DNA from: Candidatus Aminicenantes bacterium
Lineage (GTDB): Bacteria; Acidobacteriota; Aminicenantia; Aminicenantales; UBA4085
Assembly (NCBI GenBank): GCA_026393855.1
Contig: JAPKZJ010000011.1
Coordinates: forward strand, 5,761-69,760
Direction: 5' to 3'
Length of the DNA: 64,000 nt
Part shown: piece after piece, positions 12,041 to 50,196 of the stretch
How the letters are laid out: each line of letters opens with the position of its first letter
Numbering within the stretch: the stretch's first letter is position 1
The notes under the pieces: model-generated
The model's input: only the letters and a program-made list of their open reading frames with translations
Told to the model about the DNA's origin: nothing
Database searches by the model: none
Program-made: the position numbers and the translations under genes

Positions 12041-14311
12041 TTAATCCCCGTCACCGGCGAATGCCTCCGGCCAAAGAGCCATAAACGTCCTCTCGGCTGT
12101 CAGGGGGGCCTTGAAGGCCAAGGGCATTTCCGGGCGGAACGCGCGCAGGGCCTCGAGGATCGCGTAATACGCCCCGATCCCGTACATCAGCGGCGGCTCG
12201 CCCACGGTCTTGGATCCCATGATCCCGGCCGGAGGCATGGGGCCGTCAAGAAAGGCGACGGTCATTTCGGGAGTGTCGTGGATATCGGGGACTTTATACG
12301 TCGCCAGGCTGTCGGTCAGAAGCTTCCCCTCGGGCGAAAAGACGAGCTCCTCGCTCGTCATCCAGCCGATCCCCTGCATGACGGCGCCCTCGATCTGTCC
12401 GAGGTCGACGGCCGGGTCGAGGCTGCGGCCGACGTCGTGCACGATCTTGACGGAATCGATGCGCGGGACTCCGCGCAGCCCGTCGACGGTCGCCTCGATC
12501 AGGGCGGTTCCGACGGCATGGTAGGCGAAGGGGCGGCCCTTCTCCTTCGTTTTGTCGAAATAGATGCCGGGCGTCGCGTAGCTCGCGTAGGCCGACAACG
12601 GAATGCGGCGGGCGTAGGCCCAGGCGACGAGCCTCTCCCAGGACATATCCAATCGCTCGTGGGCGCAGGCGACTTCCTCGCGCTCGACGTGGACGTGCTC
12701 CACCGGACAGCCGCGATCCGCCGCGATCGCCTGCTTCAGGCGCTCCAGGATCTGGCGGCAGGCCAGGCGGGTCGCCTCGCCGTTCAGGTCGGCGCCGCTG
12801 CTCGCCGCGGTGGGCGAAGTGTTTGCGACCCGGCTGGTGTTGGTGCTCTCCATTCGGACCCGGTCAAGATGGATGCCGAAGGTGTGAGCCGCGACCCGAC
12901 GGATCTTGCGGTGGACGCCCTGGCCCATCTCCACCGCCGCGGTCGAAACGCCGACGCTGCCGTCGGTGTACACGTGGACCAGGCTGGCGGCCTGGTTGAG
13001 CATGGTGTTGGTGAACGAGATGCCGAAGCAGACCGGCATCACGGCCAAGCCTTTCTTGGTCAGGGCGTGATCGCGGTTGAACGCTTCGACCCGGGCCCGG
13101 CATGAGGCGAAGTCGTGACGCTTGTCGAGCTCGTCCCAGCAGCGAACGGGGCTGTCCGTTTCGAACCGCTGGCCGTACGGCAGCTCGTCGCTCGGGCGGA
13201 GGAGATTCCGGCGCTGGATGTCCGCGGTGGGAAGGCCGAGCTCCTTGGCCGCGTGGGTGATGGCCGCCTCCAGGACGAACATGGCCTGCGGCCCGCCGAA
13301 GCCCCGGAAGGCGGTGAAAGGCGGGAGATGCGTCCGGCAGCTTGCGGCCGTCGCGCGCACGTTCGGGATGAAATAGCTGTTGGTCGCGTGGAACAGCGTC
13401 CGCTCCAGGATGGCGGGCGAGAGATCCGCGCTGGCGCCCGCGTTCTGATAAAAGGTCGTCTCATAGGCCAGGATCTCGCCCTGCTCGGTCAGCCCGATCT
13501 TGTAATCCGAGGAATACGGATGGCGCTTGCCGGTGAAACGCCCGTCCTCCTGGCGGCTCAAGGTCAGCTTGACGGGGCGGCCCAGCCGGAAAGCGGCCAG
13601 GGCGGCCAGCGCGGCCCAGGCCGTGGCCTGATCCTCCTTGCCTCCGAAGCCGCCGCCGAGGCGCGGCACGTCGACTTCCACCTGGTGCATGGCCAGCCCC
13701 AGGACGCGGGCGATGGCGCGCTGGACCGCGGTAGGGGACTGGGTCGCCGAATAGACCTTCAGGCCGCCGTCGTCCCGCGGCAGGGCGAGGGCCGTCTGGG
13801 TCTCCAGGTACATGTGCTCCTGGCCGCCGGAATCGGCGCGGCCGCTGACGACGACGCGGCAGAGAGGCCAAGCCCTGTCCACGTCGCCCATGGCGAATGT
13901 CCGGCCCGGGCCGATGATTTCGCCGCGGGCGAAGGCCTGCCGCGGATCGAATTCGGGCGGAAGCGCTTCGAGGTCGAGCTTGATCAGGGCCCGGGCGGCG
14001 CGGGCGGCGGCAGCGCTCTCCGCGACGATCAGCGCCACGGGCTGGCCGACGAAATCAACCTCGTCCGCGGCCAGCAGGGGCTCGTCCTGGATGATGCTGC
14101 CGATCTGGTTGGCGCCCGGAACGTCGCGGGCCGTCAGCACGGCGACGACACCGGGGTGCGCGGCCGCCGCGGCGGCATCGAGCCGCCGGATCTTGCCGTG
14201 GGCGAGGGGCGAAGGGACGGGAACGGCATGGAGCGTCCCTTGGGGGACGCGGATATCGCGGACATACCGGGCCGCGCCGCGCACGTGCAAGAGGACGTCG
14301 TCGTGCTTCAC
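12041..14311 (-). CDS. xdhB: Xanthine dehydrogenase, molybdopterin-binding subunit
   Basis: 756 aa. GTG start overlaps the xdhA stop (GTGA). GAGGAGGA RBS. Aldehyde oxidase / xanthine dehydrogenase a/b-hammerhead and MoCo-binding pattern throughout. Confidence 0.85.
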   Translation of the reverse strand: MKHDDVLLHVRGAARYVRDIRVPQGTLHAVPVPSPLAHGKIRRLDAAAAAAHPGVVAVLTARDVPGANQIGSIIQDEPLLAADEVDFVGQPVALIVAESAAAARAARALIKLDLEALPPEFDPRQAFARGEIIGPGRTFAMGDVDRAWPLCRVVVSGRADSGGQEHMYLETQTALALPRDDGGLKVYSATQSPTAVQRAIARVLGLAMHQVEVDVPRLGGGFGGKEDQATAWAALAALAAFRLGRPVKLTLSRQEDGRFTGKRHPYSSDYKIGLTEQGEILAYETTFYQNAGASADLSPAILERTLFHATNSYFIPNVRATAASCRTHLPPFTAFRGFGGPQAMFVLEAAITHAAKELGLPTADIQRRNLLRPSDELPYGQRFETDSPVRCWDELDKRHDFASCRARVEAFNRDHALTKKGLAVMPVCFGISFTNTMLNQAASLVHVYTDGSVGVSTAAVEMGQGVHRKIRRVAAHTFGIHLDRVRMESTNTSRVANTSPTAASSGADLNGEATRLACRQILERLKQAIAADRGCPVEHVHVEREEVACAHERLDMSWERLVAWAYARRIPLSAYASYATPGIYFDKTKEKGRPFAYHAVGTALIEATVDGLRGVPRIDSVKIVHDVGRSLDPAVDLGQIEGAVMQGIGWMTSEELVFSPEGKLLTDSLATYKVPDIHDTPEMTVAFLDGPMPPAGIMGSKTVGEPPLMYGIGAYYAILEALRAFRPEMPLAFKAPLTAERTFMALWPEAFAGDGD

Positions 14312-15762
14312 GCGAGATCCTCCTCGCGGATTCTCTCGGGAAAAAGGGCCAGGAAGTGGGCCATGATCAGGCGCGGCAGAAGAGCGCGCTTGTAATCAGC
14401 CGAGCCGCGGACGTCGCTGATCGGCGCGATTTCGCCGGCCGCAGCGGCGGCCGCCGCGCGCGCGGTTTCCGACGAAATCGGCCGGCCTGGAAGCAGCGCG
14501 GAGGCGTTGCGCAGATAGAGCGGGACCGGCGCGACGCCTCCCGCCGCGGCATGCGCCTCGACGATGCGGCCGTCTCGGACGCGGAGCCGGATCGCCGAGC
14601 TGACGCCGGCGATATCCAGATGCGCCCGGCGGGCGACCTTCTCGAAACCGAACCGGGTGTCGGCGTCGGGGACCGGGAAGAGAATTTCGGCGATCATCTC
14701 GTCGGCGGCCAGGTCCAGGACTTTGTAGCCGCGGAAAAAATCGCGGAGAGCGACGGATCTCTTTTTCCTGCCTCGCGCGAGAGCCAGCGTTGCATTCAAG
14801 GCGAGGAACATGACCGAGCAATCGCCCGCCGGCGAGGCGTTGACGATGTTGCCGGCGATCGTGGCCCGGTTGCGGACGGGCCGCGAGGCGATGCGGGCCA
14901 ATTGCCGACCCAGCTCGGGAAATAGCTGTTTGATGATCGGGGACGCCTCGAGCGCGGACAAGGGCGTCGCCGCCCCGATACGAATCTCGCCTCCTTCGAC
15001 GCGGATTCCCTGGAGGTCCTCCCGCCGCGAGAGCAAGGTCGGATCTTCATCGCGGAGCTTTTCGGCCTGGGTCACATAGAGGTCCGTACCGCCCGCGACT
15101 AAAACAGGGGAGTGGCCGCGCTGCTTCTCGGCCGGGGCCTCGTCCGCGGCGGATTTATTCAAAACACCGAGACGGACGGGCGCATCGAGAAAATACTCCG
15201 GCAGAATCCCGCGCGAGACGAGCGCGGCGACTCGCTCCTTGGAGGACGGTTCGCCGGCTGGTTCGAGGTCGTGGAATTGCGCGCTCAAGCGGGCGATCGC
15301 CCGGCGGATGGCCACATGACCCGTGCAACGGCAGATGTTGCCGCCCAGCTCGGCGATCCCGTCGGCCTCGGTCACGGGCGCGCCGCCGAGAAGGAATCCG
15401 GTCAGGGCGACGACGAGTCCGGGCGTGCAGAACCCGCATTGGATCGCGCCCTCGTCGACAAGGGCTTGTTGGACCGGACTTAAGTCGGCCTGATTGAGGC
15501 CCTCGATGGTCACGATATGGCGTCCCGCCGCCTCGCCCAGGGGGAGAAGGCAGGAGTTGACGGTTCGGTAGATGATTCCGTCACCCTGCGCGATGCCGAG
15601 AAGGACCAGACACGAACCGCAGTCGCCTTCGCGGCAAGCGTCCTTTGTCCCGGTGAGTCCGAGGTCGTCCCGCAGTATGTCCAGGAGCACGTTCCCGAGG
15701 CTCCGGGGGATAATCTGCTCCCGGTCGTTGAGGAGAAACAATTTGCCTGCCACTGCGGACAA
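14308..15762 (-). CDS. xdhA: Xanthine dehydrogenase small subunit (two [2Fe-2S] domains plus FAD-binding domain)
   Basis: 484 aa. Motifs CREGDCGSCLV, GFCTPG and CRCTGH, followed by an FAD-binding domain. The ORF-track start is TTG 15762. GTG 15753 is more consistent with the promoter immediately upstream. Confidence 0.85.
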   Translation of the reverse strand: MSAVAGKLFLLNDREQIIPRSLGNVLLDILRDDLGLTGTKDACREGDCGSCLVLLGIAQGDGIIYRTVNSCLLPLGEAAGRHIVTIEGLNQADLSPVQQALVDEGAIQCGFCTPGLVVALTGFLLGGAPVTEADGIAELGGNICRCTGHVAIRRAIARLSAQFHDLEPAGEPSSKERVAALVSRGILPEYFLDAPVRLGVLNKSAADEAPAEKQRGHSPVLVAGGTDLYVTQAEKLRDEDPTLLSRREDLQGIRVEGGEIRIGAATPLSALEASPIIKQLFPELGRQLARIASRPVRNRATIAGNIVNASPAGDCSVMFLALNATLALARGRKKRSVALRDFFRGYKVLDLAADEMIAEILFPVPDADTRFGFEKVARRAHLDIAGVSSAIRLRVRDGRIVEAHAAAGGVAPVPLYLRNASALLPGRPISSETARAAAAAAAGEIAPISDVRGSADYKRALLPRLIMAHFLALFPERIREEDLA

Positions 15763-15793
15763 GCATAGATTCCGGTTTAATTCATGTCAAGGA
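15757..15793 (-). promoter_or_regulatory. Promoter/operator block of xdhAB, shared with the 13-kb purine operon
   Basis: On the minus strand: TCCTTGACAT, 9 nt, CGGAATCTATGCTTGTCC. That gives -35 TTGACA (15790-15785), a 17-nt spacer and -10 TATGCT (15767-15762). The 18-mer and the 10-mer are identical to 31827-31863. Confidence 0.6.
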
Positions 15794-15834
15794 CGATTGG
15801 CCGAGCGGCGCAGCCCGCGGCTATCCTCTCATTC

Positions 15835-15864
15835 TTGATTTCGGTCCGAGGTCGGTAGTAGTGT
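15835..15864 (+). promoter_or_regulatory. Candidate promoter of the LOG-family gene (leaderless configuration)
   Basis: TTGATT (15835-15840), 18-nt spacer, TAGTGT (15859-15864), then 6 nt and ATG 15871. No SD. Confidence 0.35.
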
Positions 15865-50134: not shown

Positions 50135-50144
50135 GGGGGGCGTT

Positions 50145-50161
50145 CCGATTCCGAGAATCGG
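50145..50161 (-). promoter_or_regulatory. Perfect inverted repeat at the predicted transcript 5' end (operator or 5' stem-loop)
   Basis: CCGATTC-CGA-GAATCGG, lying immediately downstream of the -10 at 50173-50168. Confidence 0.4.
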
Positions 50162-50167
50162 GAGACG

Positions 50168-50196
50168 ATTCTAGGGGACTCGCCGGGCCGTGTCAA
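50168..50196 (-). promoter_or_regulatory. Promoter of the smallORF-5'NT-tdk-deoB-punA operon
   Basis: On the minus strand: TTGACA (50196-50191), 17-nt spacer, TAGAAT (50173-50168). Confidence 0.55.

Follow-up and report, generated by a model that had tools for sequence, protein, structure and literature searches.

Does a run of nucleotide, nucleoside, and purine genes in an Aminicenantes genome form one system, and what would that system do? Aminicenantes, uncultured anaerobes that abound in sediments, fens, and digesters, are mostly portrayed as fermenters of sugars or proteins. We analyzed a 64-kb stretch of a Candidatus Aminicenantes bacterium (GenBank assembly GCA_026393855.1, contig JAPKZJ010000011.1, positions 5,761 to 69,760), referred to below as the window, with coordinates counted from its first letter. 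Between positions 12041 and 50196, the window carries 34 genes in ∼11 transcription units, and 26 to 27 of the 34 concern nucleotides, nucleosides, or purines. The binomial P value for this count is ∼1e-28 if a genomic background of 4% is assumed; more tellingly, the neighborhood is conserved in related species. We think it likely that, in this anaerobic Aminicenantes bacterium, the block is a conserved, functionally integrated neighborhood through which nucleosides and purines are used.

At 65% G+C, the window is rich in spurious overlapping open reading frames (ORFs); genes were therefore picked by third-position G+C content (GC3) and reading frame. The picked proteins were searched against Pfam and NCBIfam, and selected ones against PDB. 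Curated NCBIfam cut-offs were passed by YgeW, YgeY, SsnA, cdd, deoC, pdp, YjjG, nupG, udk, punA, deoB, tdk, and LOG, and the remaining system genes have a clear Pfam architecture. A first-pass annotation, made from the sequence alone, had named the genes of the block; all of them are present where it placed them, and almost every gene name held up in these searches. The operon layout and the catabolic logic that it had proposed (dephosphorylation, uptake, phosphorolysis, pentose-phosphate cleavage, aldehyde oxidation, base oxidation, and ring opening) also fit homology.

Conservation of the neighborhood among relatives

To follow the neighborhood across genomes, window proteins were mapped by tblastn onto 326 fetched loci (given as L numbers) with 10-kb flanks. 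SsnA, add, XdhB, and the aldehyde:ferredoxin oxidoreductase (AOR) have their nearest relatives, at 80 to 91% identity, in metagenome-assembled genomes (MAGs) labelled Candidatus Aminicenantes, Aminicenantia, or Acidobacteria. The related MAGs come from fens, lakes, soils, and digesters, and a few bin labels are evidently wrong. In public sequencing runs, SRR20698639 and ERR153022xx among them, 12 short contigs encode an identical SsnA.

On contig CAWDOL010000014.1 (L087, L011, L236), the whole order from the 5'-nucleotidase gene nt5 to xdhB is kept, on to the flanking DPP4 gene, at ∼72 to 92% amino acid identity: nt5-tdk-deoB-punA, the outer-membrane barrel gene, udk-PRT-add (PRT, phosphoribosyltransferase), yjjG-pdp-moaD-AOR-deoC-cdd, the nine-gene urate operon, PIN-phd-trpF-LOG, xdhB, and DPP4. 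Only nupG and a VapB/PIN module are missing from the order seen in the window. In the MAG CAYSGA01 (L010, L168), the order is shuffled and the modules are still adjacent, with the CysK-like gene of the urate operon followed by xdhAB and then by the deo-AOR operon. The clustering is real and maintained among relatives, and the synteny check proposed with the first-pass annotation finds it conserved across Aminicenantes species. We found no report on nucleoside or purine catabolism in Aminicenantes in the literature.

The modules differ in how widely they are kept. The nucleoside block is present in ∼45 Aminicenantes loci, which form two clades with ∼83% and ∼65% add identity; most of these loci have no purine-ring operon, and AOR-MoaD is restricted to the closer of the two. 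The purine modules have a patchy distribution: the urate operon lies beside deo in only 6 of the sampled Aminicenantes genomes, with xdhAB nearby in 3. Outside the phylum, Ignavibacteria and Kapaibacteria have the nine-gene operon in collinear form (55 to 69% identity), and many Bacteroidales MAGs join the XdhAB type of the window to ygeW, ygeY, hyuA, both pyridoxal phosphate (PLP) enzyme genes, FeS-xdhD, and ssnA, a combination that arose independently.

Could the modules have become adjacent through rearrangement and lateral transfer, so that the supercluster is a coincidence of independent operons with no functional integration? The collinearity of the nine-gene operon, standing alone in Ignavibacteria and Kapaibacteria, suggests transfer as a unit. 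Toxin-antitoxin modules, trpF, and a DUF6404 gene lie between the units, which have different promoters, and the urate operon and xdhAB are missing beside cdd in L088/L247, one of the closest relatives by add identity. On the other hand, the urate operon adjoins the deo-AOR operon in 6 of 6 Aminicenantes genomes found with ssnA (the window included), even in the shuffled L168; xdhAB and the urate operon have a conserved common promoter; and Bacteroidales independently pair this XdhAB type with the same ring-cleavage genes. We regard coincidence as improbable and favor functional integration.

A different arrangement was seen in three further Aminicenantes loci (L100, positions 1 to 4342, and also L104 and L108). 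Here, a CysK-like paralogue, a true dihydropyrimidinase (TIGR02033, 537 bits in L100), a MocA-like cytidylyltransferase, and an XdhC-family maturation factor lie directly upstream of punA and replace nt5-tdk-deoB. Therefore, there is more than one arrangement by which base-degradation genes are joined to the nucleoside block.

The urate operon and its partner xdhAB

The core of the purine part is an operon of nine genes on the minus strand (18714-31741, 13.0 kb), whose gene content marks it as a variant form of the anaerobic reductive uric-acid (2,8-dioxopurine) pathway. This pathway was resolved biochemically in 2025 in Escherichia coli, Clostridioides difficile, and Clostridium sporogenes (PMC12507026; 10.1101/2025.04.24.650524), and SsnA was the marker enzyme in the survey of Li et al. 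2025 (PMC12507026). Three products identify the operon. The SsnA amidohydrolase (27923-29254, minus) scores 481 on NF005540 against a cut-off of 444, also passes TIGR03314 (456.0 against 455.5), and is 35% identical to E. coli SsnA. The knotted carbamoyltransferase YgeW (20177-21370, minus; NF005538, 594 against 453; 57% identity to E. coli YgeW) would, by homology, carry out ureido-group phosphorolysis to carbamoyl phosphate. The M20 hydrolase YgeY (26701-27906, minus; NF009555, 500 against 321; 52% identity to E. coli YgeY) is predicted to cleave the ureido group.

Other products were assigned with more reserve. A HyuA-like cyclic amidohydrolase of the hydantoinase/dihydropyrimidinase family (24094-25464, minus; Amidohydro_1) is 29% identical to E. 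coli HyuA. A molybdenum hydroxylase is encoded by a small subunit gene with two [2Fe-2S] clusters (21381-21863, minus; Fer2_2 and Fer2; XdhC_XDHase at 170 bits, below its cut-off) and a molybdopterin subunit gene (21860-24112, minus; recognized by Pfam, with the pucD, XdhA, and Se_dep_XDH models below cut-off); the operon contains no gene for an FAD subunit. Judged by position, the molybdopterin subunit is a candidate reductase of urate to 2,8-dioxopurine, the XdhD/DOPDH role. Its identity to E. coli XdhD is 27%, no closer than that of xdhB. We also considered the column of E. coli XdhD Glu606 as a discriminator between urate reductases and xanthine dehydrogenases; it falls in a variable loop, and xdhB has Glu there as well, so it is uninformative. 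In C. difficile, the molybdenum enzyme likewise works without an FAD subunit, and the authors suggested ferredoxin as its electron donor (PMC12507026).

The first gene of the operon encodes an 828-amino-acid flavoenzyme of the dihydropyrimidine dehydrogenase (DPD) type, a fusion of PreT-like and PreA-like parts (29255-31741, minus; Fer4_20, Pyr_redox_2, DHO_dh, and Fer4). The PreA model gives 184 bits, and pig DPD is the best PDB match. The protein is not YgfK, whose model scores 133 against a cut-off of 835. The DPD-type gene lies directly upstream of ssnA in >30 loci, and we take its product as a candidate 2,8-dioxopurine reductase. In C. difficile, a PydA-type protein, UacX, which has no FAD domain, stands in for YgfK (PMC12507026).

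These two enzymes raise the question of whether the operon instead degrades pyrimidines or hydantoins by the reductive Pyd pathway, with DPD, dihydropyrimidinase, and a ureidopropionase-like hydrolase. The closest solved relative of the reductase is a dihydropyrimidine dehydrogenase, dihydropyrimidinase is the best model for the amidohydrolase, and no other pyrimidine-ring degradation pathway is evident in the window. However, SsnA, YgeW, and YgeY pass equivalog cut-offs, and a Pyd pathway has no need for the molybdenum hydroxylase inside the operon. Moreover, the amidohydrolase reaches only 247 on TIGR02033 against a cut-off of 393, whereas the true dihydropyrimidinase of L100 far exceeds it, and the C. 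difficile case shows that a PydA homologue can serve urate degradation. A Pyd operon is thus quite improbable, and the urate assignment is the one that we retain.

The operon also departs from the published clusters in its PLP enzymes. YgeX, the 2,3-diaminopropionate ammonia-lyase, is absent from the window. Two other PLP enzymes are encoded in the operon. The first, a ThrC-like protein (25465-26691, minus), matches PALP with 249 bits, is best described by threonine synthase NCBIfam models, and aligns with threonine synthase in PDB at 1e-50; it was rejected as YgeX, with no diaminopropionate ammonia-lyase among its PDB matches. The second, a CysK-like protein of 484 amino acids (18714-20168, minus), is the product of the last gene. 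It belongs to PALP, and its best PDB match is cysteine synthase at 1e-25, with the cysteine synthase NCBIfam models far under their cut-offs. Both proteins align to E. coli YgeX over 46 to 70 residues only, the ThrC-like one in a 70-residue local match. The CysK-like family has >8000 relatives with generic names only; the top 120 are 68 to 92% identical, all ∼484 amino acids long, and called "cysteine synthase" or "PLP-dependent enzyme." At ∼70% identity between phyla, it is more conserved than the other pathway enzymes. Neither family is mentioned in the two urate studies (PMC12507026; 10.1101/2025.04.24.650524).

Among SsnA loci that also have YgeW and YgeY, 17 contain only the ThrC- or CysK-like enzymes, 4 only YgeX, 4 both, and 4 neither. 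These counts make the ThrC-like and CysK-like enzymes the leading candidates for the final pathway step here. Their role is not settled, since both accompany YgeX in ∼11 Desulfosporosinus-type loci, a co-occurrence that weakens the view of them as simple substitutes for YgeX. One speculative possibility is a route by β-elimination of urea or ammonia from albizziin or diaminopropionate. More broadly, CysK-like and ThrC-like genes accompany SsnA clusters in MAGs labelled Ignavibacteria, Bacteroidales, Desulfosporosinus, Halobacteroidaceae, and Aminicenantes (L012 to L073 and L182 to L246), where the two genes are often mutually adjacent and sometimes occur with YgeX.

The presumed source of urate is encoded nearby. 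The xdhB gene (12041-14311, minus; Ald_Xan_dh_C, MoCoBD_1, and MoCoBD_2) specifies the molybdopterin subunit of an XdhAB-type xanthine dehydrogenase, with TIGR02965 (xanthine_xdhB) as the best NCBIfam model at 786 bits against a cut-off of 849.5. Its partner xdhA (14308-15753, minus; Fer2, Fer2_2, FAD_binding_5, and CO_deh_flav_C) specifies a fused subunit with two [2Fe-2S] clusters and FAD, best matched by TIGR02963 at 324 bits against 467. The start codon of xdhA is uncertain; it is probably the GTG at 15753, directly after the promoter. By domain architecture, the pair has the two-subunit layout of the Rhodobacter type, one subunit with FeS and FAD and the other with the molybdenum cofactor (MoCo). 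In L236, xdhA and xdhB align as several frame-shifted pieces (8570-12256), and intact copies lie on L238, a second contig of the same MAG; the broken copies are probably a long-read assembly error or strain variation.

The promoters tie the two purine units together. The xdhAB promoter (15790-15762, minus) has TTGACA-17-TATGCT within an extended motif, and the same motif forms the urate-operon promoter (31860-31832, minus): TCCTTGACAT-N17-CGGAATCTATGCTTGTCC, with an identical block of 18 nt around the −10 box and one of 10 nt around the −35 box. Even with two mismatches allowed, the 14-mer ATCTATGCTTGTCC occurs at only these two sites in the window. The motif recurs at the urate-operon promoters of relatives (L007, 7474-7485; L009, 7358-7369) and just upstream of xdhA in L238 (∼3700-3750). 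This shared, conserved promoter argues for joint control of the two purine units, and the motif may include the binding site of a putative regulator. A leader hairpin follows the extended motif TCCTTGACAT-N17-ATCTATGCTTGTCC (15757-15790 and 31827-31860, minus), including that of the urate operon. Over the whole window, neither Rfam, used with its gathering thresholds, nor tRNA scans gave a match, and there is thus no riboswitch evidence.

Several small genes lie between the purine units. A LOG-family nucleotide 5'-monophosphate nucleosidase (phosphoribohydrolase) is encoded divergently from xdhA (15871-16452, plus; Lysine_decarbox; TIGR00730, 151.6 against 96.35) and stays beside xdhA in the relatives L236 and L238. 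The TrpF-like (PRAI) gene that follows (16483-17139, plus) falls short of every PRAI equivalog cut-off (131 against 215), is retained next to LOG in L236 and L238, and ends at a terminator-like site (17139-17155). It may be more than an interruption, with a phosphoribosyl compound of this system as the substrate instead of a role in tryptophan synthesis. Next come a Phd/YefM antitoxin and PIN toxin module (17308-18026, plus; Pfam), found at the same position in L011, L236, and L238, and a DUF6404 protein (18186-18599, plus; PF19942, 101 bits).

The deoC-AOR pair and the uptake and salvage genes

Divergently from the urate operon runs a deo operon (31949-37372, plus) of cdd, deoC, AOR, a MoaD-like gene, pdp, and YjjG, with gaps of 0 to 8 nt or overlaps. 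The first gene, cdd (31949-32389; NF004064, 137.6 against 74), encodes cytidine deaminase; the same 146-amino-acid product is called in public assemblies, and a minus-strand ORF considered for the gap at 31921-32394 has no Pfam match. It is followed by deoC for deoxyribose-phosphate aldolase (32394-33224; TIGR00126, 258.8 against 117.3) and by the AOR gene (33232-35004; AFOR_N, 246 bits; AFOR_C, 470 bits). In PDB, the AOR product matches 9mqx at 3e-184 and 1aor at 3e-170, FOR at 6e-94, and WOR5 at 6e-62, and the GAPOR model gives 37 bits; by these scores, it is a canonical AOR and not FOR, GAPOR, or WOR5. The MoaD/ThiS-like protein with a Gly-Gly end (35006-35293; ThiS; TIGR01687, 41 against 49.5), whose TTG start directly follows the AOR stop codon, probably serves as a sulfur carrier for the cofactor; the aor operon of Aromatoleum likewise has a MoaD-like gene next to AOR. 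The operon ends with pdp for pyrimidine-nucleoside (thymidine) phosphorylase (35295-36638; NF004490, 536 against 269) and a YjjG-family pyrimidine 5'-nucleotidase of the HAD superfamily (36623-37372; TIGR02254, 183.7 against 159.9).

The link between deoC and AOR extends well beyond this operon. In a species-representative genome set, we surveyed the 80 closest AOR loci. By gene order, among the AOR relatives with ≥55% identity, all 32 for which the upstream sequence is long enough have deoC directly upstream on the same strand, compared with none of 38 relatives with <55% identity. A stricter distance test finds the pair in 29 of the 32 (Fisher P = 1e-16), with the three misses due to split alignments. 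The deoC-linked clade comprises MAGs labelled Aminicenantes, Cloacimonadota, Planctomycetia, and Deltaproteobacteria, and we found no paper describing the pair. The simplest reading is that AORs of this clade would oxidize the acetaldehyde released by DeoC to acetate while reducing ferredoxin.

Both reactions are reversible in principle, and the pair could run synthetically, with AOR using reduced ferredoxin to turn acetate into acetaldehyde, which DeoC would join to glyceraldehyde-3-phosphate to give deoxyribose-5-phosphate and, via deoB, the phosphorylases, and tdk, deoxynucleosides. In a Cloacimonadota MAG (L274, 5162-9452), deoC-AOR stands isolated among unrelated genes and is followed by a gene for a long ThyX-domain protein of 515 amino acids. 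This neighbor, thyX being a gene of dTMP synthesis, is the only hint of a link to deoxynucleotide synthesis instead of catabolism, although tdk and deoB are also present in the window cluster. The pair of the window, however, shares its operon with cdd, pdp, and a nucleotidase and has genes for uptake and ring degradation as neighbors, a catabolic setting, and nothing suggests that ribonucleotide reductase is missing. The synthetic direction is therefore very hard to credit, and we keep to acetaldehyde oxidation.

Downstream of the deo operon, past a VapB antitoxin and PIN toxin module (37430-38023, plus; domain scans), lies the gene of a NupG-type nucleoside:H+ symporter (38211-39518, plus; Nuc_H_symport, 443 bits; TIGR00889, 500.6 against 446). 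A salvage operon on the minus strand follows, with add for adenosine deaminase (39585-40832; A_deaminase, 221 bits, with the NCBIfam adenosine deaminase models below cut-off), a type I phosphoribosyltransferase of the purine type (40829-41419; Pribosyltran; best PDB matches to purine PRTs and HGPRTs), and udk for uridine kinase (41416-42054; NF004018, 286 against 180). The first-pass annotation had called the next gene (42225-45356, plus) a TonB-dependent receptor. The receptor-like outer-membrane barrel is there, with a signal peptide, CarboxypepD_reg, and a large barrel (OMP_b-brl_4, 216 bits); the plug is weak, at 17.2 bits against a cut-off of 23.9, although it falls at the expected residues 144 to 240. 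The protein has no sequence relative in PDB, and its gene lies between punA and udk in ∼25 Aminicenantes loci.

A second minus-strand operon closes the block. Its promoter-like site (50168-50196, minus; TTGACA-17-TAGAAT, 11 of 12 matches), whose −35 box is what lies at 50196, the right boundary set by the first-pass annotation, would serve a 72-amino-acid ORF, nt5, tdk, deoB, and punA. The 72-amino-acid ORF (49916-50134, minus; MLINVNGRSIEIF...; GC3 of 0.85) has no Pfam or NCBIfam match; its stop codon overlaps the nucleotidase start, indicating translational coupling, and copies with 40 to 73% identity lie upstream of nt5 in 14 Aminicenantes loci. The nt5 gene (48390-49919, minus; Metallophos and 5_nucleotid_C in Pfam, and NCBIfam matches) encodes a lipoprotein 5'-nucleotidase of the UshA/NadN superfamily, with M44 of the long ORF as its true start and a signal peptide that has the lipobox ILSSC. 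The remaining genes are tdk for thymidine kinase (47802-48371, minus; NF003300, 238.7 against 195), deoB for phosphopentomutase (46543-47745, minus; NF003766, 511 against 256), and punA for purine nucleoside phosphorylase (45725-46546, minus; NF006054, 361 against 218).

Between the barrel gene, which is followed by a strong terminator (45396-45423), and the punA stop codon lies an imperfect long hairpin of 290 nt (45430-45719) built from four nested inverted-repeat pairs (−149.9 kcal/mol, z = −6.7). It has no other copy in the window and none at the same junction in relatives, and it is therefore left out of the system, to which it probably does not belong. It has no convincing Rfam match, a permissive scan of 45300-45800 giving weak matches to the terminator only. 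The hairpin is specific to this species and could be an RNA or an inserted MITE-like element. The first-pass annotation had listed two toxin-antitoxin modules, trpF, and one structured element as the only interruptions of the block; all of these are real, but the annotation missed the genes for DUF6404 and the 72-amino-acid ORF.

Just upstream of the nucleotidase operon are genes for a major facilitator superfamily (MFS) transporter of the GlpT/UhpC/PgtP type (50209-51579, minus) and for a P-loop protein of 241 amino acids (GRPASGKSE; 51573-52298, minus) that overlaps the start of the transporter gene. The P-loop protein has no Pfam or PDB match, and DNA matching its gene turns up in L092 and L138 as well, close to where the nucleoside block ends with cdd. 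Past the block, among glycoside hydrolases and peptidases, lie genes for a radical-SAM/SPASM protein (53483-54622) and a PFL-like glycyl-radical enzyme (56087-58741), which fit an anaerobic fermenter. Together with the tungsten-type AOR and the reductive urate pathway, they agree with the earlier proposal of an anaerobe, which is what the organism looks like.

The predicted route and its relation to known systems

From homology and synteny, we consider the following sequence of predicted activities likely. The surface lipoprotein 5'-nucleotidase would dephosphorylate external nucleotides, and nucleosides or larger fragments would cross the outer membrane, possibly through the TonB-receptor-like barrel, and nucleosides the inner membrane through NupG. 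Adenosine would be deaminated by add and cytidine by cdd; punA and pdp would free the bases and (deoxy)ribose-1-phosphate, which deoB would convert to the 5-phosphate. DeoC would then split deoxyribose-5-phosphate into glyceraldehyde-3-phosphate and acetaldehyde, and AOR would oxidize acetaldehyde to acetate with reduction of ferredoxin. XdhAB would oxidize hypoxanthine and xanthine to urate, with LOG freeing bases directly from nucleoside monophosphates.

In the urate operon, the Mo/FeS enzyme would reduce urate, and the DPD-type flavoenzyme would dearomatize the product. SsnA and HyuA would open the two rings, YgeW and YgeY would take off the two ureido groups, and the ThrC-like and/or CysK-like enzymes, not YgeX, would form pyruvate and ammonia from the C3 amino acid, with CO2 and NH3 released. 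The hypoxanthine route would be formally redox neutral, two XdhAB oxidations being followed by two reductions in the operon. Part of the flux would be sent to salvage by tdk, udk, PRT, and YjjG, which would also set pool sizes. A bolder proposal makes the block a self-contained "nucleic-acid utilization locus" with its own redox balance, in which ferredoxin from AOR would feed the FAD-less molybdenum enzyme that reduces urate, the PLP enzymes would end the pathway differently from YgeX, and the barrel would import nucleosides or oligonucleotides. Taken jointly, these elements are speculative, and we think the combination unlikely to hold; if true, each of the three (the AOR-urate redox loop, the PLP route, and the barrel importer) would be a new biochemical function.

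Several findings weigh against an integrated system, among them the absence of the purine modules beside cdd in close relatives such as L088/L247 and the company of YgeX in Desulfosporosinus-type loci, both described above. The claim that the block covers the whole route does not stand: Pfam and NCBIfam scans of the 64 kb found no nuclease, guanine deaminase, or carbamate kinase, no gene for ferredoxin or for molybdenum, tungsten, or selenium cofactor maturation, and no transcription factor or DNA-binding regulator, of the DeoR or CytR type included. The missing carbamate kinase is not disqualifying, because in some strains this enzyme (YqeA) is encoded elsewhere in the genome (Liu et al. 2025, 10.1101/2025.04.24.650524). 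XdhAB, HyuA, add, and the in-operon molybdenum enzyme score below equivalog cut-offs, so we infer their substrates. An operator common to all promoter regions was also sought; only xdhAB and the urate operon share a motif, from which the cdd, udk, barrel, and nt5 promoters differ.

Part of this evidence also suits a view of the block as mainly housekeeping salvage and pool control, in which nucleic acids are not a principal source of carbon, nitrogen, and energy. The products of tdk, udk, the purine PRT gene, add, cdd, punA, pdp, and deoB belong to the classical salvage repertoire, no nuclease was found in the window, and the core nucleoside block occurs mostly without the purine-ring operon among its ∼45 Aminicenantes loci. 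Conversely, the exported lipoprotein nucleotidase, the putative outer-membrane importer, and NupG suggest external substrates, and deoC-AOR, xdhAB, and the ring-cleavage operon, leading irreversibly to acetate, pyruvate, CO2, and NH3, amount to catabolism. We judge salvage as the main purpose to be unlikely. Nevertheless, the catabolic reading of the first-pass annotation is overstated: because tdk, udk, and PRT are salvage enzymes, the block serves both recycling and catabolism.

A conserved locus for nucleosides and purines offers a concrete substrate hypothesis for Aminicenantes, and it extends the anaerobic urate pathway, framed so far as a gut trait, to free-living environmental phyla. 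It also presents three targets for biochemistry: the deoC-coupled AOR clade, the CysK-like 484-amino-acid and ThrC-like families that travel with SsnA, and the receptor-like outer-membrane protein fixed in the nucleoside locus. The suggestion of a lifestyle centered on extracellular DNA and RNA is plausible and has precedent in other sediment bacteria, although as an ecological inference it goes past the sequence evidence. DNA-foraging sediment anaerobes, for example, of the Izemoplasma type, are known from isotope probing or cultures, nucleases included (bioRxiv 10.1101/528695; PMC10470597). The idea for the Aminicenantes locus is the same as for theirs: nucleotidases, nucleoside phosphorylases, and xanthine dehydrogenases would support life on extracellular nucleic acids in anoxic sediment. 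The locus differs in its lineage, in having no nuclease in the window, and in the consolidation of its genes with a reductive urate pathway, and it is known here from sequence alone.

Classical nucleoside operons are E. coli deoCABD with nupG, cdd, and add (the CytR/DeoR regulon) and B. subtilis dra-nupC-pdp. The window shares with them DeoC, thymidine/pyrimidine phosphorylase, phosphopentomutase, and purine nucleoside phosphorylase, all four of which pass NCBIfam cut-offs, as well as a nucleoside permease and cytidine and adenosine deaminases. Unlike the classical systems, it gathers these genes in one neighborhood instead of scattering them, uses a PunA-type and not a DeoD purine nucleoside phosphorylase, has no DeoR/CytR gene in the window, places AOR and a MoaD-like gene after deoC, and includes the lipoprotein nucleotidase, the outer-membrane barrel, and salvage kinases. 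The AOR itself aligns over its full length, with both AFOR domains, to P. furiosus AOR (PDB 1AOR) and bacterial AORs (9MQX and 8C0Z) with E values of 1e-150 to 1e-184. Unlike known AORs, its clade is fixed directly downstream of deoC and has no AorA- or AorC-type partner subunits.

Among urate systems, the known E. coli cluster reads ygeW-ygeX-ygeY-hyuA-yqeA...ygfK-ssnA-ygfM-xdhD, and further clusters are found in C. difficile and C. sporogenes. The operon of the window resembles the E. coli cluster in its SsnA, YgeW, and YgeY orthologues (35 to 57% identity), a HyuA-family amidohydrolase, an in-cluster molybdenum hydroxylase, and a reductase gene directly upstream of ssnA, and it resembles C. 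difficile in its PydA-homologous reductase and its molybdenum enzyme without an FAD subunit. Unlike UacX of C. difficile, the reductase is built like a complete DPD and so includes the FAD/NAD(P)H half. Unlike the published urate clusters, the operon is joined to XdhAB and nucleoside catabolism, and the window lacks YgeX and carbamate kinase and adds ThrC-like and CysK-like PLP enzymes. The host is an environmental member of Aminicenantes, a phylum absent from the list in the SsnA survey of Li et al. (PMC12507026). The enzymes, both pathways, and DNA foraging as a concept were already known. The deoC-linked AOR clade, the promoter shared by xdhAB and the urate operon, and the receptor-like barrel fixed in the nucleoside block appear to be undescribed, and what is new is the consolidation of these genes in Aminicenantes and a urate-pathway variant with a full DPD-type reductase and two PLP enzymes instead of YgeX.

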